Source: Bacilli bacterium
GTDB taxonomy: Bacteria; Bacillota_I; Bacilli_A; RF39; UBA660
Length of the DNA stretch: 64,000 nucleotides
Assembly: GCA_017442305.1 (NCBI GenBank)
Contig: JAFRZY010000001.1
Coordinates: 2,632 to 66,631 of the forward strand
Direction: 5' to 3'
Shown here in pieces: positions 5,153 to 24,452 of this stretch; position 1 is the stretch's first letter, and each line of letters begins with the position of its first letter. A model generated the notes under the pieces. The model saw only the letters and a program-made list of their open reading frames with translations. It made no database searches and was not told the origin of the DNA. Both the position numbers and the translations under genes were made by a program.

Positions 5153-5575
5153 ATGCTTGAATTATATAAAAAATATAAAGAAATTATTAATTATTTAATA
5201 TTTGGTTTTTTAACAACTGTAGTCAGTTTAGTAGCTTATTATTTGGTTACAATAACAATTCTTGATCCTAATGTTAGTTTAGAATTACAAATAGCTAATG
5301 TAATTTCTTGGATAGTAGGAGTTTTATTTGCATATTTTACCAATAGAGCTTTTGTATTTAATAGTAAAAATGAAAACAAGTTAAAAGAATTTATCACATT
5401 TACTGGAGCTAGAGTATCAACTCTTTTACTTGATATGGCTGTTATGTTTATATTTGTAACTCTTTTAAAAGGCAACGATAAAGTATTTAAAATAGTTAGT
5501 CAAATTTTAGTTATAGTAGGTAATTACTTATTAAGTAAATTAATTGTATTTAAGAAGGATAAAAATGAAAAATAA
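5153..5575 (+). CDS. GtrA-family membrane protein
   Basis: 140 aa, 4 TM. NVISWIVGVLFAYFTNRAFVF is typical of the GtrA family. First gene of the gtrA / GT-C / GT2 trio. Confidence 0.8.
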   Translation: MLELYKKYKEIINYLIFGFLTTVVSLVAYYLVTITILDPNVSLELQIANVISWIVGVLFAYFTNRAFVFNSKNENKLKEFITFTGARVSTLLLDMAVMFIFVTLLKGNDKVFKIVSQILVIVGNYLLSKLIVFKKDKNEK

Positions 5576-7631
5576 GTTATTTAGTTTTATTAATAAGTTC
5601 TTAATAATATTTACAATTATCTGTTTTTCTATTTCATTAATAGGAGCAGTATTTTTCTATGTTAATAGAAGCCATGATTATTTAAATCCCTTAGTTTTAA
5701 TAGTAGGTTCTATAGTTTATTTATTTTTACTAATTAAGTTATATAAAATTATTATTAGATTAGATGAAAAGAAAAAGAAAATTATAGTATTTGTTTTACT
5801 TATATTACAGTTTTTATTACTTTTATTAAGTACATTTGTTATAAGTAGTATTCCTCAAGTAGATTTAATTCATATTTTAACTGAGATTAATAGTTTAAAT
5901 CATACAGGAACAATTTTAAATAATACGTATTTTTCTGTTTATCCAAATAATAGATTTTTATTAATTTTGTTATATGGATTGCAAAAAATTAGTCCTGAGA
6001 ATAGCTATGTGATTTTCTATTTATTAAGTAGTGTAAGTATTACAGTGATGTCTTATTTTACTTATAAAACTGTTAATAAGTTGTATGATATCAACAAAGG
6101 ATTATTGAGTTTATTTATTTGCGTGTTATCTCCAATCTTTTATTTATATGTTTCTTATTATTATACAGATGTTTTAATGCTTCCGATAGCGAGTATTATT
6201 ATTTATTTGATTGTTAAAAATAAAGATGAAGAAAATCTTAAAAGTAACATCATTTACGGTTTAGTAATTGGAGTTTTATCAATAATAGGATATAAGATTA
6301 GAGCGGTTGCAATTTTCTTGCTAGTAGCGTATTTTGTTTATTTAGTATTTACTAAAAACATATTATTTATAATAAAAAAATTCTTACCAATTGTAGTAGG
6401 AGCGTTTATAACATTATTTTGTATTGGTCAAATAGAAAATAATTTCTTTCCTAATGTTGATGCTAATAAAGAATTTCCAATGACGCACTGGATTATGATG
6501 GGAGCCAATAAAAATAATTATGGTTATTATAGTCAAGATGATTATAATCTAAGTAGTAGTGCTTTAACTAAAGAAGAAAGATCTGAACTAAATATTAAAG
6601 AAATAAAAAACAGAATAATTGGAATGACACCTTATGAAATGACTAGACAATTGGTTGTAAAATTAGTTTCAGTATGGGGTAAAGGAGATTATAGTTATCA
6701 GAAATATTTAGAGTTAGTAAATGAATTTAATCCGTCTTACCGCTATTTACTTGAAGATAAAAATATTGTTATTAATTATTTATTACAATTTTCTAAAATA
6801 GTAGTTATGTTTATGGCTATATTATCTTTAATTAATATTTATAAAAGTAATAAAGTATCAATAATGGCTATTGCCTTATTTGGAGCAGTTTTCTTTTATA
6901 TAATTTGGGAAGTTTGTCCAAGGTATGGATTATCTTTCTTGCCATGGTTAATTATAATTGGAACGAATTCTTATGACGCTTTAAAAGAAAAATGTGATAA
7001 GATTAGTCTTAATAAATATTTTAAATATACTATTTTAGGCGTAACTATATTGTTATTTATTTTGGGATTTAATTATTATACATCTATAAGTTTAAAAGAA
7101 AATATGGTAGCAAAAGATGATGTTAGTAAAATAAAATATGTTGCTCTTAATAAAGATAATTATATTACTCAATCTTTAGATTTATATGATGATTTTAATA
7201 AAATAAGATTAAAATTCAAATATACAGAACAAAGCTTAGATGATACTTATTATTTAGAACTTTTAGATGAAAAGAATAATATTGTTTATAAACATGAGTT
7301 TACTAACAAAGATTTAGTAAATGAAAAATATACTAATTTTATTTTAGACAAAACTTATGGAAAAGGAAAATACACAATTAAATTAAGTTCTAATTCCGAA
7401 AAAAATCTAGATGTTTATATTGCTTATAAAGAGGAATTTGATTATTATCCTGAAGGTGTGTTAAAATTAAATGGAGATATTGAAACAGGAGATTTAATAT
7501 TTGAAATTGTTAATCAAGAAAAAAGACCTATATATTCATATCTCGAATATTTTGGAATTATAGCTTTAACTTTAGGAGTTGAGTATATAGTTTTGTTTAG
7601 AAAGAAGGAAGATGTAAATGAAAAAAAGTAG
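5565..7631 (+). CDS. Polytopic GT-C-type (ArnT/PMT/YfhO-like) membrane glycosyltransferase
   Basis: Track ORF 5544 trimmed to ATG 5565 (aaggat SD). More than 10 hydrophobic segments, then a soluble C-terminal domain. Genomic context lies between gtrA-like and GT2 genes. Confidence 0.6.
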   Translation: MKNKLFSFINKFLIIFTIICFSISLIGAVFFYVNRSHDYLNPLVLIVGSIVYLFLLIKLYKIIIRLDEKKKKIIVFVLLILQFLLLLLSTFVISSIPQVDLIHILTEINSLNHTGTILNNTYFSVYPNNRFLLILLYGLQKISPENSYVIFYLLSSVSITVMSYFTYKTVNKLYDINKGLLSLFICVLSPIFYLYVSYYYTDVLMLPIASIIIYLIVKNKDEENLKSNIIYGLVIGVLSIIGYKIRAVAIFLLVAYFVYLVFTKNILFIIKKFLPIVVGAFITLFCIGQIENNFFPNVDANKEFPMTHWIMMGANKNNYGYYSQDDYNLSSSALTKEERSELNIKEIKNRIIGMTPYEMTRQLVVKLVSVWGKGDYSYQKYLELVNEFNPSYRYLLEDKNIVINYLLQFSKIVVMFMAILSLINIYKSNKVSIMAIALFGAVFFYIIWEVCPRYGLSFLPWLIIIGTNSYDALKEKCDKISLNKYFKYTILGVTILLFILGFNYYTSISLKENMVAKDDVSKIKYVALNKDNYITQSLDLYDDFNKIRLKFKYTEQSLDDTYYLELLDEKNNIVYKHEFTNKDLVNEKYTNFILDKTYGKGKYTIKLSSNSEKNLDVYIAYKEEFDYYPEGVLKLNGDIETGDLIFEIVNQEKRPIYSYLEYFGIIALTLGVEYIVLFRKKEDVNEKK

Positions 7632-8571
7632 TTTAGTATTAAATTTGGTAATACCTTGTTACAATGAAGAAGAAGCATTACCGCTTACTAAAAAAGAATT
7701 AGATAAAAAAATGGCCAGTTTAATGGAAGAAGGTCTAATTAGTAAGGATAGTAAAGTAGTATTAGTTAATGATGGATCTAAGGATAAAACTTGGGATGTT
7801 ATTACAAAACTACATGAAGAAAATAATATGTATGTTGGTGTTAATTTATCAAGAAATAGAGGACATCAAAATGCTTTACTTGCAGGACTTATGTATGCGA
7901 AAGATCACGCTGATATAAGTATAAGTATGGATGCGGACTTACAAGATGATATCAATGTTATGGATGATATGATAAAAAAATATAATGAAGGTGCAGATGT
8001 TGTTTACGGAGTACGTAGTTCACGTGAAAAAGATACATTCTTTAAAAAGTTTACTGCCGAAGCATTTTATAAATTAATGCATGTTATGGGAGTTGAAGTT
8101 GTATTTAATCATGCAGACTGCCGTTTGATGAGTAAAAGAGCTTTAGAGGGATTAAGTCAATATAAAGAAGTAAATTTATTCTTAAGAGGCATTGTTCCAC
8201 AAGTGGGATATAAAACGGATATTGCTTATTATGAAAGAAACGAAAGAGTTGCAGGAGATTCTAAATATCCACTTAAAAAAATGTTAGCGTTTGCGATAGA
8301 TGGAATTACTTCATTTAGTATTAAACCACTTCGTATGATTACATCGATAGGATTTATAATTTTATTACTAAGTTTTGCGGTATTAATTTATTCATTAATC
8401 ATGAAAATTATTGGTAATACTGTTTCTGGATGGACATTTATAGTTTGCTCAATTTGGTTAATTGGGGGCATTCAAACTTTATGTTTAGGAGTAATTGGGG
8501 AGTATATAGGAAAAATTTATAACGAAACTAAAGAAAGACCTAGATATATAGTTGAATCAATATTAGATTAA
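7618..8571 (+). CDS. GT2 polyprenyl-phosphate glycosyltransferase (GtrB/CsbB-like)
   Basis: 317 aa. LVIPCYNEEEAL, VLVNDGSKDKT, DxD MDADLQDD and two C-terminal TM helices. Confidence 0.85.
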   Translation: MKKSSLVLNLVIPCYNEEEALPLTKKELDKKMASLMEEGLISKDSKVVLVNDGSKDKTWDVITKLHEENNMYVGVNLSRNRGHQNALLAGLMYAKDHADISISMDADLQDDINVMDDMIKKYNEGADVVYGVRSSREKDTFFKKFTAEAFYKLMHVMGVEVVFNHADCRLMSKRALEGLSQYKEVNLFLRGIVPQVGYKTDIAYYERNERVAGDSKYPLKKMLAFAIDGITSFSIKPLRMITSIGFIILLLSFAVLIYSLIMKIIGNTVSGWTFIVCSIWLIGGIQTLCLGVIGEYIGKIYNETKERPRYIVESILD

Positions 8572-8598
8572 AGATGTTAGTTATTAACATCTTTTTAT
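8572..8598 (+). terminator. Rho-independent terminator
   Basis: Perfect 8-bp stem AGATGTTA / TAACATCT followed by TTTTTATTT. Confidence 0.65.
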
Positions 8599-8654
8599 TT
8601 GTTATAAAAGTAAAAATATGATATAATAGCCAACCAAGAAACGGGTGGAGTATT

Positions 8655-10190
8655 GTGAATGCTTACGAAAAATATTATAGAAGAAGTTATAATGCTATTA
8701 AAAGATTAACCGAAGTTTATAAAAACGGCTATGATGAAGCAAAAATGCAGCAGTTTAGAGCGTATTTAAATACTTGTGGAATCAATAGAGATGTTTTATA
8801 TGCTGAACAAGCTAATATTATGTTTACAATAGCAGTAGCATTATTAGGTTTAAATAAAGAAAGTATTGAAAAAACCGAAAAATTTACGGAATATAAAAAA
8901 GCAAATAATGCTTTAAACATTAGAAAAAGAGATATTCCTATATCTGCTCAAAGAGAAATAGCAGCATTTGATGCTAAAAGAGTTAGAGAAACTGACTTAG
9001 ATGACTGGTTAAGTATTATAATTGATATACCTGCAGATAAAACTAACGCAGATCATATTAAAAGAGTAAGAAATGGTTTGTTGCATGGTAATTTTTATGT
9101 AGATGGTGATAATCACTTATTACAAAAAGCGCATATTAAAACAAAAAGTTATTATGAATCAGAACTATTAAGTATTGAGTTTCAAACTTTTGTTTTTGAA
9201 TACTTTAGTAATTTAGAAAATTTAGGCTTGGCAGAAAAAATGCAATCATTTCTAATGGATACAGAAAATCATATTGTTGATGAACTTGATTTAACTACAA
9301 GATTGATAGAAATGTCTATTGTTGAACTTAGCTATGATAATTTAAAAACAGTGGGAGTAGATACTCCAGAATTATTATACGTTGATTCATTAGATGAAAG
9401 ATATAAAGTAGATTTAGCGTCATTTGTTAAGAAAATGACTGAAACTAATAACTATGAAAATTTTAAATCTTCGATAAGACATTTAAATACAAACGAAATA
9501 GCTAAAACTTTTGTGTTTATCACTAAAAAAATTGGAGAGGATTTTTATAAATTTGATATAGATAAACAATGTGGAATAATTACCTCTCATTTACAATTTG
9601 CTATAAATCCAAAAAAAGATATTAGCAATTGGTTGATGCATTTTTGGTACTTGTTTTCAACAATGTATAATGGACGTTTTCACATAGAGTATTTTAGGGG
9701 TGATGATTTCGCATTTGAATCTTGTTTATCAGCATTGGCCATTTTAAAAGCTTATTTAGTAATGTATCGTATGCAAGTTAAAGATTTCACAGAAATAGAA
9801 TATGATAAAATTAACTTTGATCGCAGTTTTTTAAAAAACAAATTAATATCTAGTCATACTACAACTCCGCCGACTGAAGATTATTTTGAAGCATCATTTT
9901 TAAAAGAACGCTCTAAAGATTTGGTTAGTAGTGATGATGTAATATGGAACAAGATTATTTGTGAAGTAGTAAGAAATAGTTTGGCTCATGGAAATGTTAG
10001 ACCTTATACGGATAATTCTTTAGAATCTATGATTGAACTAACGGATGTTGATCCTAAAAATGGAAGTATAAGAGCAATTCAGATGCCGCTTGAAAAATTT
10101 GAAGAATTTTTAAATTCAGAAGCATTCAGTCCTAGTAATTGTTATAAAAAAACTGATGAAAGTTTAAGTTTAAGTAGAAAGAAAAGTTAA
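8655..10190 (+). CDS. Orphan protein with two HEPN-type R-x4-H motifs (candidate RNase)
   Basis: 511 aa, GTG start with SD gggtggag. RVRNGLLHGN (R139-H144, nt 9069..9086) and VVRNSLAHGN (R440-H445, nt 9972..9989). Own extended -10 (TGATATAAT) and own terminator. Confidence 0.5.
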   Translation: MNAYEKYYRRSYNAIKRLTEVYKNGYDEAKMQQFRAYLNTCGINRDVLYAEQANIMFTIAVALLGLNKESIEKTEKFTEYKKANNALNIRKRDIPISAQREIAAFDAKRVRETDLDDWLSIIIDIPADKTNADHIKRVRNGLLHGNFYVDGDNHLLQKAHIKTKSYYESELLSIEFQTFVFEYFSNLENLGLAEKMQSFLMDTENHIVDELDLTTRLIEMSIVELSYDNLKTVGVDTPELLYVDSLDERYKVDLASFVKKMTETNNYENFKSSIRHLNTNEIAKTFVFITKKIGEDFYKFDIDKQCGIITSHLQFAINPKKDISNWLMHFWYLFSTMYNGRFHIEYFRGDDFAFESCLSALAILKAYLVMYRMQVKDFTEIEYDKINFDRSFLKNKLISSHTTTPPTEDYFEASFLKERSKDLVSSDDVIWNKIICEVVRNSLAHGNVRPYTDNSLESMIELTDVDPKNGSIRAIQMPLEKFEEFLNSEAFSPSNCYKKTDESLSLSRKKS

Positions 10191-10274
10191 AACCTTTTCT
10201 TTTTTTATTTAAGATAACAATTATTTATAAATTAATGATAATTTGATATAATGAATAAGAAAGATAGTGATAGT

Positions 10275-10538
10275 ATGAATTTGACAATAGGTAAAGTTAA
10301 AAGTTTTGATGGTTTTTCAGGAGAAATTATTACTCAAAATGCAAAATATATATTTTTAGATACGGATATCATAGAAGGTAACACTATTACTAATAATGAT
10401 TTTGTTTCTTTTAGAGGAGAAGAAATCAATGGCATTAACAGAGCTTATTTTGTAAGATTTTTTGCTAAGGATATTAATGAAGCAAAAAATAGTACAGAAA
10501 CGTTAGAGAAATTATTAAAGAAAGCGGGTGATTATTAA
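10275..10538 (+). CDS. Small cold-shock-domain/OB-fold-like protein
   Basis: Track start 10251 lies inside the extended -10 box TGATATAAT (10244..10252), so ATG 10275 is preferred. GKVKSFDGFSGEII...FVSF resembles the CspA-type GxVKWF..GFGFI pattern. Stop overlaps the next start (TAATG). Confidence 0.4.
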   Translation: MNLTIGKVKSFDGFSGEIITQNAKYIFLDTDIIEGNTITNNDFVSFRGEEINGINRAYFVRFFAKDINEAKNSTETLEKLLKKAGDY

Positions 10539-13500
10539 TGAATAATAACCGCTCTTTAATAAATTTATTAGAACAAATTAATACAAAAATTGAAAATAAT
10601 AATTTTAATTTTACTGAATTAGAAGTTAAATTTATTAGTCTTAATAAAAATTTGTATGAAAAGATATTTAATATTTTGGCTAATAATAGAGAAGAATGGA
10701 AAACTTTATCAAAGGCTGCCGAAAAATTATTAGATCTTTTTGCATACAATTATGAACTAAATGAAGATTATATTAAAAATAGTAGTATATTTATGATAGA
10801 TAAAGGTTTTTTAAATTTTAATTTTTCTGATGAAAGGATAGCCTCAGAAGTTAACTCCTATTTTGCTGAAAAATTAAAAGATGCTAGTTATAAACCAGAA
10901 TCAATTTCTATTTCTAAAGAATTACTACAAATAATTGTTTTAAATAATAGAATGGATTTATTAGACAATGTAGCGTATATATCTGGAATGGACTTAAAAA
11001 CGGCATTAGAAATTAAAGATTATTTTGTAAATAATAATAAAGAAATTTCTCCAATTTTTCATGAATATTTAAAAGAGTGTAATTTACCATTAGAGATATT
11101 AGATATTCATGCCTTAATTAGAGAGATGCTAGGTTCTAAAAAAATATCTTTTGAACTTTTAATTAATAAATTAAAAAATTCTGATTCCCTTATAAAGGAA
11201 GATCCATTTTGGAGTAAAATTTTATCTAGTTTAGAAGAGAAAGAAAGAGAAATAATTGCCGATATACTACTTGATAAACACTGTTATATAGGAGTAATAC
11301 CTTCATTAAATATAAATGAAACAAATGTAGAAAAATACGTTAATAAGTTTATTCAAATTATTGATGCTGATGATATTATTGAAGATTTTACAGATGAATA
11401 TAAAACAAATAGCAATTATCAAATACTACTTAGTAAACCTAATGTAGTTGAGGCGTTAATCAAGCAAAATAAATTTTCAATTGTATTATGTAGTCCAATA
11501 CTTAATAACTATGTTTCTAATATTATAGAAATGATTAGGAGTAATCCTGAAAGATTTAGGGAAGCAAATTTTAGTGACTATGAGTTAGAAAAGTACCCAG
11601 AAATTTATTCGGAATTAATAAAAATTGGTAACTGTTCATTATATGATTCTTTTAATTGTTCAAAGGATTTAAAAGATTATTTTAAAGAACAAGTTATAAA
11701 TGGTAATTTTAAAAAAATTCCTAGGGCTTTATTAAATGATAATGATTTTATTAATTTAATGATAAAAGAGGGACATATTGATACTATTTTTTTGACAACT
11801 AATATGTTAAGAAAAGATGGGCTATATGAATTTGATTTAGAAAGTACTAAAATAATACTTGATAAATGCGAAAATGATTTGGATTTTGCAATTGATTTTT
11901 TGATGAGAAATACTGTATCGGTAATAAAAAATCAAGAGTTATTAATTTACTTTCTGCAATGTAATTTTGTGTTCGTAGAATACTTATTAGAAAAAATGAA
12001 CCATTTGGAAGAAGATTTGAGTATTTATTCTAAAGAGGTTTTAGAGGTTCTTAAGAATTATCTTATAAAAAAATATCAATTAAACGAAGAACATTTTACT
12101 ATATTAGCAAATAACTTTGGACCATTAATAGTTCGTTATGTGGATAACGAAAATATCAAAGAAGTAATAAATTCAAACGATGAAACTTTTAATAAGATTA
12201 TTGGATTATTTCCTAAATTAGAATTTAAAATGGCTGATGTTGAGAAAATATATGATGCGTTAAAACAATATGAATTTTCTAAAATAAATGTTAATGATAT
12301 TGAAATATTTGCTAGAATTAATCATTCACTTAATGATCGAAATACTGAATATTTAAAAGACTTAGAAACTTTAGCTACTATATTTGTTAATGAAGAAGAA
12401 GCAAATAAATTTTATAAAAAGTTTATTACAGCATATCCAGAATTGTTAGATTCTTGTAAAGAGAATCCAAAATCATTTTTACTTAATATAATAAAATATA
12501 TAGAGAGTGGATCTTTAGAAGAGAAAGATTATTATATTAATGTCTTACATTTTATAACAGATTATTATATAGCTAATAAACGAGAACAATATCGTCTTAC
12601 TTATGATATGAATGAGGCTTTAAATTTACCTTATATTTTAGATGAAAAAGATAGTATAAAACAATTTATAAAATTGTGTGCATTAAGAATTCATAAAAAT
12701 CTAATTGTTTTAGAAATGATGGAAAGAGGAATAGATGAAACTCTAGCCAACGATTGTATAGATTACTATTCTTTTGATAAAAGAGATTTTTCGGATGATA
12801 GAGTAGTAGAAATTCAAAAACATATTAAACTTATGATTAATCTTGCAAACAAAATTATTAAAATAACCGGTATTTCTCCATATTTCTTGGATTCGTTAGA
12901 TAATGAGGGGAAAATTAGAAGAAAATATTATGTTGAAGCTAATGCTGATAATTTATATGCTATCTTAATGAATTTACGGATAGATGTATTAGAAAATACA
13001 ATTTTAAAACCTGAAAATAATGCTACTTATGAAGCATTATTAACTTATATTTATAAATATAAGTTGCATTTATTACCTGATTATTTTAAAAAATTATTAG
13101 CAAGTGAAAATATTGATATTTCTTTAGAGGTATCGGATGTTGCTAGCTTTATTTCCTACTTTAGTGAAATAAGTGAAACAGAAAGAAAACGTCTTGATAG
13201 TTTAGGTAGAAATTCTGAAGATTTAAATTTAGGAATTATTTCTATTATGAAATATGCCGAAGCGTATTCGGCAATGTCTAGTGTATACAGTCAAATTTTA
13301 GGAATGGAAGATTTTAGACTATTAAAATCTAATCCTAAACCTAATGCGGCTCCATATAAAACAAAAGGGGACACTAGGTTGCATGAAGGGGTTTTAAAAA
13401 CTCTTGAAAACTTTAAAAGATCAGAAGTGACAGTTCCAACATTTAATGAAGTATTAACATTACCTAATGGTAAAAAAATGCAAGTAGTTGTAGGCAATTT

Positions 13501-14308
13501 TAGTCATCCCGCTAATTTAACGATGGGTGAGAGAACTGGTTCTTGTATGCGTATTGGTGGGTTAGGTGAAACACTTTTTGATTTTGTATTAAATGACAAA
13601 AACGGTTTTAACATTCGTTTAGTAGATCCTGAAACTCAAGAATTTATTTCGCGAGTATCAGGATTTAGAAATGGTAACAGTGTGTTTTTAAATGAATTGA
13701 GATTTAGTTGTAATTTAGAAAAATATTCTAATAAAGATGTTGTGGATTTTTGTACACAGGCAGCAGAAATTATGGTTGAAAAATCAAAAGATAGTTTAAA
13801 ACCTCTTGATAATGTATTTTTACATAATGCGTACGCAACAGTTGGTCTTGGACTTAGTGAAGTGTCATTTGGCATTTCGGACTGTAAAGAAGGATTAAGT
13901 AAGTTTTATTCAGACATTAAAGATAGAGGAATTGTTTTGGCAACAACTAATAAGCCTTTTGTGCCAATCGATTTTGATAAGACTAATATTCCGGCATATC
14001 CTGTTGCAAGGGAAGAAGTTTATAGTCATGAAGATTGCAATAAACTAAGAATGGCTATTAATAGAGTTCACTCAATCAACTTAGCATTACAAGGCTTTAA
14101 TTATGAATTCATTGAACCACTTAAGTTTGCAAATGGCATAATATTTGGGTTTGCTAATCAAGACTGGTATATTTATCTTGATGAAAACGGGGATATACAT
14201 GAAGAATTAATTAATATTGATTCGCGAGCTAATGCGGAATTAACCGTTGCGCGGGATGCAATAATGAGACTAAAAACTAATTTACAATTAGATAGTGGTC
14301 GTAAATAA
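10538..14308 (+). CDS. 1256-aa cytoplasmic protein of unknown family
   Basis: Long uninterrupted ORF translationally coupled to the OB-like gene. No P-loop, TM or signal peptide seen. The C-terminal ~300 aa look globular (GNFSHPANLTMGERTGSCMRIGGLGE...). Confidence 0.6.
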   Translation: MNNNRSLINLLEQINTKIENNNFNFTELEVKFISLNKNLYEKIFNILANNREEWKTLSKAAEKLLDLFAYNYELNEDYIKNSSIFMIDKGFLNFNFSDERIASEVNSYFAEKLKDASYKPESISISKELLQIIVLNNRMDLLDNVAYISGMDLKTALEIKDYFVNNNKEISPIFHEYLKECNLPLEILDIHALIREMLGSKKISFELLINKLKNSDSLIKEDPFWSKILSSLEEKEREIIADILLDKHCYIGVIPSLNINETNVEKYVNKFIQIIDADDIIEDFTDEYKTNSNYQILLSKPNVVEALIKQNKFSIVLCSPILNNYVSNIIEMIRSNPERFREANFSDYELEKYPEIYSELIKIGNCSLYDSFNCSKDLKDYFKEQVINGNFKKIPRALLNDNDFINLMIKEGHIDTIFLTTNMLRKDGLYEFDLESTKIILDKCENDLDFAIDFLMRNTVSVIKNQELLIYFLQCNFVFVEYLLEKMNHLEEDLSIYSKEVLEVLKNYLIKKYQLNEEHFTILANNFGPLIVRYVDNENIKEVINSNDETFNKIIGLFPKLEFKMADVEKIYDALKQYEFSKINVNDIEIFARINHSLNDRNTEYLKDLETLATIFVNEEEANKFYKKFITAYPELLDSCKENPKSFLLNIIKYIESGSLEEKDYYINVLHFITDYYIANKREQYRLTYDMNEALNLPYILDEKDSIKQFIKLCALRIHKNLIVLEMMERGIDETLANDCIDYYSFDKRDFSDDRVVEIQKHIKLMINLANKIIKITGISPYFLDSLDNEGKIRRKYYVEANADNLYAILMNLRIDVLENTILKPENNATYEALLTYIYKYKLHLLPDYFKKLLASENIDISLEVSDVASFISYFSEISETERKRLDSLGRNSEDLNLGIISIMKYAEAYSAMSSVYSQILGMEDFRLLKSNPKPNAAPYKTKGDTRLHEGVLKTLENFKRSEVTVPTFNEVLTLPNGKKMQVVVGNFSHPANLTMGERTGSCMRIGGLGETLFDFVLNDKNGFNIRLVDPETQEFISRVSGFRNGNSVFLNELRFSCNLEKYSNKDVVDFCTQAAEIMVEKSKDSLKPLDNVFLHNAYATVGLGLSEVSFGISDCKEGLSKFYSDIKDRGIVLATTNKPFVPIDFDKTNIPAYPVAREEVYSHEDCNKLRMAINRVHSINLALQGFNYEFIEPLKFANGIIFGFANQDWYIYLDENGDIHEELINIDSRANAELTVARDAIMRLKTNLQLDSGRK

Positions 14309-21418: not shown

Positions 21419-21424
21419 ACTTTT

Positions 21425-21607
21425 AAGCAGATGAAGAAAGAGTAGTAGTAAGGGAATTTTTTAAGAGAGTTAGTGGTTGGTGCAAACTAATAAAAAGAAC
21501 TTATGAACTTGCTTTTGGATGTATTGGGGTAATCTCCCTTAAAAGATTTAGAGAACAAATTAAGGTGGTACCACGAATCTTTCGTCCTTTGGATGAGAGA
21601 TTTTTTT
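21425..21607 (+). promoter_or_regulatory. T-box riboswitch leader (Leu)
   Basis: Stem I AGAGAGTTAGTGGTTGGTGCAAACTAAT (31/32 identical to the thrS leader). CUU-A specifier candidate (aaCTTAtg). T-box AAGGTGGTACCACG. Terminator plus T7 run. Confidence 0.8.
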
Positions 21608-21625
21608 AATAGAAAGAGGGATTAT

Positions 21626-22051
21626 ATGAATACGTGGCAATTTTATTTAGGATTTTTTGGAGTGCTATATGTTTTAGTTTTTGTTGTGGATTATTTCTTT
21701 ATTAATTTAAGAAAGTATAATTTAATGTTTAAAAAAGCTAAAAATACTAAAAAGAAACTAACAAAAAAATCAACTAAGAAAAAAGAAGTTAAAGAATTTG
21801 GCGAAGTTAATTATTTGGTTGGTAAATTCAAATTAGATAAAAAGAAAATTAATTATAAATCAGTTATTTTATGGACTGCTATTATTAATTCTTTTATAAT
21901 TTCTTTTGTATCAACTGTAATAAGTGCTATACCTGCTCATATGATTTGGCAATTGTTAGTTGGGTTTGTGCTTATATTTGCACTTATTTATTCATTATAT
22001 GAAATTTACGGACGTATTTTAGTTAAGAAAGGTTGGGGTAAAGATGAATAA
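21626..22051 (+). CDS. Small membrane protein between the Leu T-box and leuS
   Basis: Track start 21593 lies in the T-box terminator, so ATG 21626 is preferred (141 aa). Hydrophobic segments flank a Lys-rich loop. Overlaps the leuS start by 8 nt. Confidence 0.55.
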   Translation: MNTWQFYLGFFGVLYVLVFVVDYFFINLRKYNLMFKKAKNTKKKLTKKSTKKKEVKEFGEVNYLVGKFKLDKKKINYKSVILWTAIINSFIISFVSTVISAIPAHMIWQLLVGFVLIFALIYSLYEIYGRILVKKGWGKDE

Positions 22052-24452
22052 TAAATTAGTAGAAGCTAAATGGCAAAAATATTGGCAAGATAATAAATGT
22101 TTTGAAGCTTTTAATGGTGGGGAAAAACCCCCTTATTATATTTTGGTAGAATTTCCTTATCCGAGTGGTTCTGGTCTTCATGTAGGACATGTTAGAAGTT
22201 ATACTGCTCAAGATGCAATGGCTCGTATGAAAAGATTGCAGGGGTACAATGTATTATATCCAATGGGCTGGGATGCTTTTGGAGCACCAGCTGAACAGTA
22301 TGCTATAAAAAATCATATTCATCCTAAGGATGCAGTTAAGGAAAATATTGCAACATTTAAAAGACAAATGGAAACTTTAGGTTTTTCATTCGACTGGTCT
22401 AGAGAGTTTTCTACAACTGATCCAGAATATTATAAATGGACTCAATGGCAATTTTTACAATTTTATAAACATAATATGGCTTACAAAGCAACTGTCCCAG
22501 TAAACTGGTGTCCAACATGTAAAACAGTTCTTTCTAATGAAGACGCTGCTGGCGGAGTTTGTGAACGTTGTGGTGATCAAGTTGTTCAAAAAGAAAAATC
22601 GCAATGGATGCTTAAAATGGCTGATTATGCTGAGGATTTACTTACTGGTCTAGAAGATACTAACTTTGCAGAAAAAGTAAAATTAGGTCAAATTAACTGG
22701 ATAGGTAAATCTAAAGGTGTAGAATTGGATGTAGATATTGTTGGTGGTGGAAGATTTTCAATTTTTACTACATGTATTGAAACAATTTATGGAATTACTT
22801 TCTTTGTAATTGCGCCGGATGGTAAATTAATAAAAGAATTAATGCCACGAGTTTTAAATAAAGAAGAAGTGGAAGCATATATTTTAGAAACACAAAAGAA
22901 ATCAGCAATGGATCGTACAGAACTTAATAAAGGTAAAACTGGCTGCATAGTTAAAGGAATTAAAGCAATCAATCCTGTTAATGGTCGTGAAGTTCCAATC
23001 TTCTTAGGAGACTTTGTTTTGGGTGATTACGGAACTGGTGCGGTTATGGCAGTTCCATCTCATGATCAAAGAGATTTCGAATACGCTAAAGTTCATAATT
23101 TAGAGATGGTTCAAGTAATTGAAGGAAGAGAAACTGAAACTTCTGCTTTTGAAAAACAAGATTATTTGGGTAAAGGATGTAAATTAATTAATTCTGAAGA
23201 ATTTACTGGATTAACTGTTGAAGAAGCTAAAGAAGCAATTACTAAAAAACTAGTTAAAGAAGGCATTGCTAGAGTTGTTAATAATTATAAGATGCGTGAT
23301 TGGATTTTCTCTAGACAAAGATTCTGGGGAGAACCTATCCCAATGATTAATTGTCCAGAATGTGGTTGGGTACCAGTTCCAGAAAACGAATTACCTTTAT
23401 TACTTCCAGATGTTGCAGAGTATGAACCGACTGATGATGGTGAAAGTCCACTTGCAAAAATCACTGATTGGGTAAATTGTAAGTGTCCTAAGTGTGGTAA
23501 ACCAGCTAAAAGAGAAACGGATACAATGCCTAACTGGGCTGGATCAAGTTGGTATTTCTTAAGATTTATGGATGCCAAAAATGATAATGCTTTTGCATCT
23601 ATGGACGCTATGAAATACTGGGGAAAAGTAGATTGGTATAATGGAGGTATGGAACATACAGCAAGACATCTATTATATGCTCGTTTCTGGGTACAATTCT
23701 TATACAATATTGGACTTGTTCCTAATAAAGAAATGATATGGACTCGTGTATCGCATGGTATGGTATTAGGTTCAAATAATGAAAAAATGAGTAAATCAAA
23801 AGGGAATGTTATTAATCCGGATGATATCGTTAATGAATTTGGTGCTGATACTTTAAGAATTTACGAAATGTTTATGGGAGATTATGAACAAGATGCGCCT
23901 TGGAGTACAGATTCGCTTAGAGGATGTAAACGTTTCTTAGATAAAGTTATAAAATTAAAAGATAGATTAAATGAAGAAACAGGAATTTCTAAAGATTTAG
24001 AAGTAATTATTAATAAGACTATTAAAAAAGTTACTAATGATTTAATAAATATGTCTTATAATACTGCTATTTCAGCATTGATGATTCTAACTAATGCTTA
24101 TTTAGATAAAGAAACCATTACAAAAGATGAGTATAGACTTTTATTAACATTATTAAATCCGATAGCGCCTCATACTACTGAAGAATTAAATGAGTTAATC
24201 GGTTATGAACCAATTGTAAATGGTAGATGGCCAGAATATGATGAGGCTAAAACTGTGGAAGATGAAAGAGAAGTAGGAGTACAAGTTAACGGTAAATTAA
24301 GGGGTACTATTAAAGTTTCTCTATCTACCACAGAAGAAGAAATGATTAATATGAGTATGGCTAATGCTAATGTAGTAAAATTTATCGAAGGTAAAGAGAT
24401 TGTAAAGACAATCGTTATTAAAGGAAAAATTGTTAATATTGTTGTAAAATAG
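22044..24452 (+). CDS. leuS: Leucyl-tRNA synthetase
   Basis: 802 aa. HVGH (HIGH) and KMSKS motifs, CP1 editing insertion, Cys clusters. Confidence 0.95.
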   Translation: MNNKLVEAKWQKYWQDNKCFEAFNGGEKPPYYILVEFPYPSGSGLHVGHVRSYTAQDAMARMKRLQGYNVLYPMGWDAFGAPAEQYAIKNHIHPKDAVKENIATFKRQMETLGFSFDWSREFSTTDPEYYKWTQWQFLQFYKHNMAYKATVPVNWCPTCKTVLSNEDAAGGVCERCGDQVVQKEKSQWMLKMADYAEDLLTGLEDTNFAEKVKLGQINWIGKSKGVELDVDIVGGGRFSIFTTCIETIYGITFFVIAPDGKLIKELMPRVLNKEEVEAYILETQKKSAMDRTELNKGKTGCIVKGIKAINPVNGREVPIFLGDFVLGDYGTGAVMAVPSHDQRDFEYAKVHNLEMVQVIEGRETETSAFEKQDYLGKGCKLINSEEFTGLTVEEAKEAITKKLVKEGIARVVNNYKMRDWIFSRQRFWGEPIPMINCPECGWVPVPENELPLLLPDVAEYEPTDDGESPLAKITDWVNCKCPKCGKPAKRETDTMPNWAGSSWYFLRFMDAKNDNAFASMDAMKYWGKVDWYNGGMEHTARHLLYARFWVQFLYNIGLVPNKEMIWTRVSHGMVLGSNNEKMSKSKGNVINPDDIVNEFGADTLRIYEMFMGDYEQDAPWSTDSLRGCKRFLDKVIKLKDRLNEETGISKDLEVIINKTIKKVTNDLINMSYNTAISALMILTNAYLDKETITKDEYRLLLTLLNPIAPHTTEELNELIGYEPIVNGRWPEYDEAKTVEDEREVGVQVNGKLRGTIKVSLSTTEEEMINMSMANANVVKFIEGKEIVKTIVIKGKIVNIVVK

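Follow-up and report, generated by a model that had tools for sequence, protein, structure and literature searches.

In ribonucleases (RNases) with HEPN domains the Rx4-6H motif is found where helix 3 ends and the next loop starts, and helix 2 has a conserved acidic residue, typically as Ex3[KR] (PMC3710099). Cas13 is attributed to the fusion of two HEPN genes of the AbiD/F type in a paper which also notes that other HEPN proteins typically homodimerise, and outside Cas13 HEPN RNases are thought to form the active site by dimerising (PMC12165695). AbiF contains a single HEPN domain and is a homodimer that a cis-encoded RNA neutralises (PMC12737573). Las1, the KEN domains of RNase L/Ire1, Csm6 and HepT also build a composite site from two Rx4-6H motifs; they gain the second motif by dimerisation and have partners or activators (Grc3, 2',5'-oligoadenylate, cyclic oligoadenylate and the minimal nucleotidyltransferase MNT). 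The pEK499_p136 family was defined in a survey of HEPN proteins and linked to restriction-modification and Pgl defence loci (PMC3710099). Its members are single-domain proteins of about 150–170 aa, mostly from Proteobacteria and plasmids, and have to pair in order to join two motifs. Here we describe a gene from a 64-kb stretch of DNA (the window, which is the whole stretch that was analysed) of an uncultured, low-GC Bacilli bacterium. Its 511-aa product carries two Rx4H motifs in one chain. We assign a probability of roughly 0.55 to the reading that this protein is a stand-alone, guide-independent, single-chain tandem-HEPN RNase acting in biological conflict, as an anti-phage or toxin-type effector.

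The window has a G+C content of 27.7%. Two RNxxxHGN motifs had been placed in this open reading frame (ORF) by an earlier note, and both are there to the nucleotide. No other RNxxxH match occurs among the window's 61 ORFs of 100 aa or more (20,386 aa), and two or more such matches arose by chance in 0.04% of 200,000 shuffles of the 511-aa protein. That note had also regarded the protein as an orphan, which it is not, since 95 relatives were found at E ≤ 1e-3 among clusters at 90% identity, almost all of them 490–530 aa long. When 1.84 billion 50%-identity representatives were searched with a profile, 134 matches emerged; almost all are full-length or fragments, and none is clearly a single-domain relative. 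The named sources of homologues are all uncultured Bacilli or Bacillota metagenome-assembled genomes (MAGs). Species-representative genomes with a homologue were recovered from gut samples of goat, sheep, water-deer and humans (Hadza), and the metagenome scan contributed 7 short loci only. The family is thus far restricted to uncultured Bacilli of the gut, a group whose defence systems have been little charted. In an alignment of 42 family members with 26–63% identity, W118 and L119 are invariant together with the motif and helix-2 residues marked as such in Table 1. Both R-[ND]-x3-H motifs are retained even in the most distant members (P0136, P0164, P0199, P0206, P0210 and P0215; P-numbers denote family proteins and L-numbers the loci compared, which are relatives of the window except for L019, plasmid pEK499). 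The invariance of both motifs suggests that both are needed.

A family assignment from the window protein alone (Pfam, NCBIfam, PADLOC and PHROGs) gave nothing usable, and PF18736 (HEPN pEK499 p136) emerged only from its relatives. PF18736 matches 9 of the 42 members at E ≤ 10, with a best E-value of 2.5e-8. In P0050, P0065, P0057 and P0059 it covers the region of the N-terminal motif, and in P0005, P0062, P0047, P0084 and P0199 that of the C-terminal motif. Scores above the 26.6-bit threshold were reached by P0080 (34.2 bits, both halves matching) and P0199 (28.8 bits). In hhalign comparisons the N-terminal half aligns with the C-terminal half over 114 columns (P = 8e-4). The pEK499_p136 family aligns collinearly with both, over 132 columns with the N-terminal half (P = 1.8e-3) and over 136 columns with the C-terminal half (P = 1.2e-4 to 1.9e-4). 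The founder of that family (WP_000528932.1, 166 aa, annotated as HEPN family nuclease, from E. coli plasmid pEK499) contains the string CLLGLIVLPKE...KMRNSVAHF, after which come short strands and a last helix; this succession parallels each half of the window protein. CLLGLIVLPKE aligns with LLGLNKESIEK of domain 1. The order of the LLGL..KE helix, the R-N-x3-H motif at a helix end, the three short strands and the terminal helix is the same. From these profile alignments the window protein is best described as a tandem duplication with an insert of about 100 aa, in which each half would be a distant copy of the single-domain pEK499_p136-type HEPN domain. The window protein stays below the PF18736 threshold that two of its relatives pass; by transitivity and by hhalign (P from 1e-4 to 2e-3) it is a distant relative of this family and not a direct member. 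In contrast to the pEK499_p136 proteins, it joins two diverged copies and the 100-aa insert in one 511-aa chain, and its gene is chromosomal.

Other HEPN models were also matched by the family. A PADLOC-DB 2.0 scan of the 42 members gave RTasHEPN for two of them (best E-value 6.2e-5) and no other model, and a weak match to HEPN_Swt1 (0.005) was also seen. A search of PDB sequences with the pEK499_p136 family profile found no solved relative. Its best match was a ribosome hibernation promoting factor (HPF) at a sub-threshold E-value of 0.25, spanning the stretch of the profile with R/N-x-V-A-H, strands and helix. This match and a sub-threshold Ribonuc_2-5A match to the middle region of P0076 were taken as noise. 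On pEK499 (L019 41727–43013; NC_013122 111726–113012) the founder gene is followed 13 nt later by a gene for a 257-aa hypothetical protein, and two VapBC modules lie just upstream; the arrangement suggests a two-gene module in the single-domain family.

AlphaFold 2 (AF2) modelled the full protein with a predicted local distance difference test score (pLDDT) of 91.7 and a predicted template modelling score (pTM) of 0.92; the separately modelled C-terminal domain (aa 296–500) reached a pLDDT of 90.4. Each Rx4H motif sits where its helix (131–143 or 427–444) ends C-terminally and the next loop begins, which is the position described for helix 3 of HEPN proteins (PMC3710099). A polar residue, which in HEPN motifs is N, D or H, follows the arginine in both motifs (R139-N-x3-H144 and R440-N-x3-H445). 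Helix 2 of domain 1 contains the invariant E69, with K, R or N four residues on, and the nearly invariant E72. E69-x3-K73, at the end of helix 45–73, resembles the acidic Ex3[KR] feature of HEPN domains, as far as sequence can tell. In helix 2 of domain 2 Y-x3-Y-R-x-Q stands in place of the acidic motif. The middle region matched no family or fold in profile scans and Foldseek; it is a candidate sensor or substrate-binding module. The PDB sequence matches RelI and TMPRSS11D, the latter at the string RVRN.L.H.N, were regarded as chance. The idea of a single-chain dual-HEPN protein, put forward in the earlier note, stands in part: the invariant motifs, the two homologous halves and the sequence homology to a HEPN family speak for it, but Foldseek returned no HEPN structure.

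The position of the gene and its rate of change point to a function in conflict. Between the window and L001 the double-Rx4H proteins are 62% identical, compared with 86–89% for the flanking MnmL and GH31, and between L015 and L016 they are 66% identical, with 77–96% for the flanking genes. Three further loci (L031, L032 and L033) were found via the flanking MnmL gene. The gene order CitMHS / GtrA-PMT_2-GT2 ... p106-MnmL-GH31-ThrRS is common to the window, L031 and L032, and the flanks of the latter two are closely similar to those of the window (CitMHS 91%, GtrA 91%, GT2 92%, MnmL and GH31 85–87% identity); ThrRS is 92% identical in L031 and 67% in L032, and the PMT_2 counterpart in L032 is 68% identical. 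At the same position L031 and L032 both encode a 578-aa protein on the minus strand (L031 13500–15236, L032 13788–15524). About 320 residues separate its two Rx4H motifs (RTRHALAHSNY and LRNSLAHGYIK), and its PF18736 match is faint. A tblastn search with the window protein found no match at these gene positions, and the 578-aa proteins are connected to it by motif-level hidden Markov model (HMM) matches and hhalign (P = 0.005) only. They are 52% identical to each other. In L033 (MnmL 77% identical) no double-Rx4H gene was found within 10 kb of the syntenic MnmL. In L018 (9992–11557), from a Hadza-gut species representative, an in-frame TAA splits the homologue into ORFs of 226 and 278 aa. It is either a pseudogene or an assembly error, and the in-frame stop argues that the gene is dispensable there. 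The locus is hypervariable, and the gene diversifies far faster than its flanks.

The region also holds variable cargo. L005 carries, inserted between RecG and the gene, a type II methylase with a type II restriction enzyme and, in addition, the abortive-infection protein AIPR. L001 has a type II methylase and, one gene further upstream, the candidate system PDC-M33 A/B/C. The position directly adjoins GmrSD and a D12 methylase in L031, and the gene call of P0206 opens with the C-terminus of an HsdM methylase. Among the loci compared no neighbour is common to the whole family. The best-supported description is a double-Rx4H gene under strong diversifying pressure, whose fixed site lies within a variable island of the defence type. 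Since a fixed site in such an island and strong diversifying pressure together argue for a conflict effector, an abortive-infection or toxin role, which rests on genomic context and evolutionary rate, is the most likely one.

The gene is monocistronic (Table 1). An extended -10 promoter of its own had been predicted, and this is present (TG at 8619–8620, TATAAT at 8622–8627). In all 12 loci compared TGnTATAAT is found about 25–30 nt upstream of the start together with a GGGG-type ribosome-binding site. In the family alignment the N-termini of the homologues align from residue 1, and the 5' untranslated region (UTR) is about 25 nt long. The terminator that had been predicted as well is less clear: a hairpin and a U run exist, but the structure is weak, A/U-rich, overlaps the stop codon and is absent from the consensus terminator scan. 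The scan did not report the hairpin at the 5' boundary either. The next gene has a separate promoter, TGATATAAT, at 10224–10252. In the 12 loci a hairpin with a T run usually lies 3' of the homologue where the next gene does not immediately adjoin. The upstream intergenic gaps measure mostly 58–130 nt (about 190–360 nt in L012 and L005) and are mostly filled by the terminator of the neighbour and the promoter of the homologue, which leaves no room for an array of RNA antitoxins.

Table 1. Features of the double-Rx4H gene and its transcription unit (positions in the window)
Feature	Position	Strand	Description
Hairpin and T run closing the upstream GT2 gene	8571..8600	+	A/T-rich; 5' boundary of the unit; read as AAGATGTTA..TAACATCTT then TTTTATTT
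Promoter	8599..8627	+	-35 TTGTTA (8599-8604), 17-nt spacer, extended -10 TGaTATAAT; 10/12 consensus matches
Ribosome-binding site	8643..8650	+	GGGTGGAG, 4 nt upstream of GTG; GGGG-type site kept in homologous loci
Coding sequence	8655..10190	+	GTG start, TAA stop, 511 aa; NCBI MBQ6686898.1, annotated as hypothetical protein, Bacilli bacterium MAG
HEPN-like domain 1, about aa 28-195	8736..9239	+	helices 28-40, 45-73 and 131-143, 3-strand beta-meander, helix 173-184 (AF2)
Helix-2 motif of domain 1, LLGLNKESIEK	8841..8873	+	L63, G65, N67, K68 and E69 invariant
Rx4H motif 1, RNGLLHGN, aa 139-146	9069..9092	+	R139-H144 = 9069-9086; R139, N140 and H144 invariant
Middle alpha/beta region, aa 196-301	9240..9557	+	secondary structure from AF2
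HEPN-like domain 2, about aa 302-500	9558..10154	+	helices 302-335, 354-374 and 427-444, 3-strand beta-meander, helix 479-486 (AF2)
Helix-2 motif of domain 2, YLvmYRmQ	9753..9776	+	Y367, Y371 and R372 invariant, Q374 nearly so; no acidic residue
Rx4H motif 2, RNSLAHGN, aa 440-447	9972..9995	+	R440-H445 = 9972-9989; R440, H445 and G446 invariant; N or D at 441
Hairpin spanning the stop codon, then U run	10169..10213	+	terminator-like, weak, A/U-rich; -13.3 kcal/mol, z -2.4

In the mechanism that we propose, a pEK499_p136-type HEPN domain would have been duplicated and the two copies joined by the alpha/beta middle region of about 100 aa. The two invariant R-N-x3-H motifs could then form one composite, metal-independent RNase site within a single chain, and cleavage would be expected to leave 2',3'-cyclic phosphate ends. 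Such an RNase would presumably be latent, silenced by autoinhibition and released by a trigger in the course of infection. The infection cue might be sensed by the middle region or by other variable surfaces, and infection would be aborted as RNA of the cell or the phage is cut. The HEPN fold, the intramolecular active site, the RNase activity, the trigger and the defence phenotype are what we infer in this scheme. An extended version, in which the protein is an immune sensor-effector that arose by a duplication and fusion independent of Cas13, is retained and diversified at one chromosomal site (with 511-aa and 578-aa types that BLAST cannot relate), reads phage triggers itself and owes its specificity to hypervariable surfaces, is offered tentatively and is clearly the less probable form.

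Cas13, including the compact Cas13an, likewise carries two HEPN Rx4H motifs per polypeptide, and intramolecular pairing is expected for the window protein as well. It differs from Cas13 in that its gene has neither a CRISPR array nor a guide RNA, as judged from the 64 kb, the Rfam scan and the short intergenic regions of 12 loci. No similarity to Cas13 was found by phmmer or hmmsearch against PDB sequences nor by Foldseek against the PDB. Since the domains appear to come from the pEK499_p136 lineage and not from AbiD/F, their fusion would be independent of that in Cas13, and by sequence the family looks like a separate instance of the single-chain double-HEPN solution. AbiD and AbiF (Abi_2, PF07751) are stand-alone HEPN defence RNases of Firmicutes and in this respect are close to the role proposed here. 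The window protein, however, has two domains and no Abi_2 match, and no associated RNA was found. Nor was a partner or activator found for it of the kind known for Las1, RNase L, Csm6 and HepT. If the proposal holds, the single-chain double-HEPN architecture arose more than once, here from a different HEPN family and in a compact (511 aa), guide-free form. It would offer a natural comparison for how intramolecular HEPN pairing stays silent and is then activated. A fixed position, defence neighbours and divergence beyond BLAST detection next to flanks of 85–92% identity form a signature of the sort that is used to find new immune genes. Much could be learned from a structure, given a confident AF2 model for which Foldseek finds no neighbour in the PDB.

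Several results weigh against a tandem-HEPN conflict RNase. The window protein itself matches no Pfam family at E ≤ 10 and lies below the gathering threshold of PF18736 (26.6 bits). It has no NCBIfam or PHROG match, and in PADLOC-DB 2.0 it matches no catalogued defence model and gives only a weak hit to RTasHEPN (E = 0.028). Foldseek found no match at E ≤ 0.001 for the full model against the PDB and BFVD or for the C-terminal domain model against the PDB, and no HEPN, Cas13 or AbiF chain is among the top 50 matches; the top weak matches are unrelated alpha/beta sensor-like folds. In each domain a 3-strand beta-meander separates the motif helix from the final one, so that neither is the plain four-helix up-down bundle of HEPN proteins. 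No antitoxin or regulator was found for this gene, whose promoter is strong. No homologue was found in collections of phages, plasmids and viral contigs. The gene neighbourhoods of family members overlap in a chain: RecG lies upstream of the homologue in L003, L005 and L012; DUF5661, Endonuclease_NS_2 and ABC genes are common to L003, L006 and L010; CorA upstream and NUDIX-GNAT downstream occur in L016, L027 and L028; and a LysM-amidase is near the homologue in L015, L017, L018, L027 and L028. This chained synteny suggests long vertical residence and not frequent transfer, unlike most defence genes.

Chained synteny across members that are only 26–63% identical would also fit the vertical descent of a lineage-specific housekeeping or regulatory endoribonuclease, a bacterial counterpart of Las1-type processing enzymes which perhaps works with the neighbouring NUDIX hydrolase (RppH-like conversion of 5' ends) or with kinase/phosphatase end-healing enzymes. 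We consider this unlikely. The uniform length, the strong promoter of its own in all loci, the missing antitoxin and the lack of occurrences on phages and plasmids agree with such a role, but the protein diverges far more than the flanking core genes, up to the loss of BLAST similarity between flanks of 85–92% identity, and forms only 95 clusters at 90% identity, whereas the best 120 MnmL matches listed are all at least 74% identical. The in-frame stop in L018 and the missing gene within 10 kb of MnmL in L033 do not suit it either. HAD_PNKP and HD+AAA_28 genes just upstream in L006 and NUDIX genes (8–11 nt downstream in L016, L027 and L028, nearby in L001, L005/L012/L013 and L006) could be taken as the proposed end-processing partners; the NUDIX genes, however, are of differing subfamilies and none is present in the window stretch. 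Moreover, it is established that the characterised bacterial HEPN RNases all act in conflict systems (PMC3710099). That the protein is the toxin of a toxin–antitoxin-like or two-component module with an unrecognised partner is quite unlikely in our view. Candidates for such a partner are a variable gene next to it, an antitoxin at an unlinked site, or the downstream NUDIX/GNAT pair acting as neutraliser. HEPN toxins commonly have protein or RNA antitoxins (PMC3710099, PMC12737573), the 166-aa founder pEK499_p136 is followed by its 257-aa gene after 13 nt and flanked by VapBC modules, and NUDIX and GNAT are tightly packed downstream in one subclade. No neighbour is shared throughout the family, however; the window gene has its own promoter and terminator-like hairpin, with a separate promoter for the next gene, and the adjacent 95-aa and 1256-aa proteins occur in the window and L001 only.

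A more basic objection concerns the fold. The RNxxxH alpha+beta domains might not be HEPN RNases at all and might serve nucleic-acid binding or other hydrolytic chemistry in a fold that is not represented in the PDB. The Foldseek results with their unrelated alpha/beta sensor-like folds and the beta-meander after each motif helix are in line with this, and pEK499_p136 itself was assigned to HEPN by comparing profiles (PMC3710099); no solved structure was found for it, and its family profile gives a sub-threshold match to a ribosome hibernation factor (E = 0.25). Foldseek often misses small helical domains, however, and the exact R-[ND]-x3-H with a polar residue after the arginine, its position at the helix end and the upstream Ex3K all fit HEPN. 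Together with the weak independent matches to RTasHEPN (6.2e-5) and HEPN_Swt1 (0.005) this leaves the objection only a slim chance of being right. The least probable explanation, already largely refuted, is an RNA-guided or RNA-regulated double-HEPN effector, either a compact Cas13 or an AbiF-type protein with a cis-encoded RNA. The earlier note had seen no CRISPR array, which we confirm: the 64-kb window contains no CRISPR-like or tandem repeat array, and no guide-like RNA was seen. An Rfam scan of the window at gathering thresholds gave a T-box about 11 kb away as its sole match, hence none near the gene and no AbiF-type RNA (RF03085). The short 5' UTR and the short gaps occupied by promoter and terminator in most of the 12 loci argue against an adjacent RNA, and neither an Abi_2 Pfam match nor a Foldseek match to Cas13 or any AbiF chain was obtained.

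In the window the gene is surrounded by GT2 and by genes for proteins of 95 and 1256 aa. The GtrA / PMT_2 (695 aa) / GT2 cluster upstream (5153–8571) resembles Gtr-type modules for the modification of surface glycans; relative to L032 its PMT_2 has the 68% identity given above, against 91–92% for GtrA and GT2. The genes for the 95-aa and 1256-aa proteins downstream (10251–14308) overlap, with stop and start sharing ATGA, and have no Pfam, NCBIfam, PADLOC or PHROG match. This pair is common to the window and L001 only, with 49–55% identity as compared with 86–89% for nearby core genes. Since it is restricted to these two loci and missing at the same locus in L031 and L032, it is a fast-evolving insertion. 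Because the annotated ATG overlaps with the -10 box of the promoter, the 95-aa gene may truly start at Met9. The two genes were rejected as partners because beyond the window they occur in L001 only, are absent from L031 and L032, and are unrelated to the large neighbours in L008 and L015. A recurring 420-aa neighbour has a signal-like N-terminus and a hydrophobic C-terminal anchor by reading of its sequence. It looks like a secreted, membrane-anchored surface protein and was taken as a syntenic passenger. The minimal nucleotidyltransferase known as HEPN-MNT antitoxin is absent beside the window gene and in the related loci examined.

In L016 (11539–12575), L027 (7536–9377) and L028 (7539–8567) a NUDIX gene starts 8–11 nt after the stop codon of the double-HEPN gene and is followed by GNAT. 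Judging from this arrangement, co-transcription of the three genes is probable in the subclade. In L001, L005/L012/L013 and L006 there are NUDIX genes no more than 4 kb away, and these belong to other subfamilies. NUDIX was rejected as an obligate partner because the subfamilies differ and tblastn found no NUDIX gene in the window stretch. In L006 (3607–6702) the homologue is directly preceded by genes for an 871-aa HD+AAA_28 protein and a 155-aa HAD_PNKP phosphatase, and in L005 an HD_4+AAA_28 protein is encoded downstream. Possibly, the HD/AAA_28 and HAD_PNKP proteins are RNA-end-healing enzymes beside an RNase that would leave cyclic-phosphate ends. L027 (2853–3800) and L028 (2853–3803) carry an Abi_2 gene (AbiD/F-type HEPN) three genes upstream of the double-HEPN gene, within a conserved block of SpoIID, Zn_dep_PLPC, Abi_2, HtrA-like protease and CorA.

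The T-box leader of the window (103.7 bits) is located directly upstream of a 152-aa ORF that has no family match (21422–24452 for the region). This ORF overlaps the start of leucyl-tRNA synthetase (LeuRS), and small unannotated ORFs of 140, 137 and 123 aa precede LeuRS in L031, L032 and L033.

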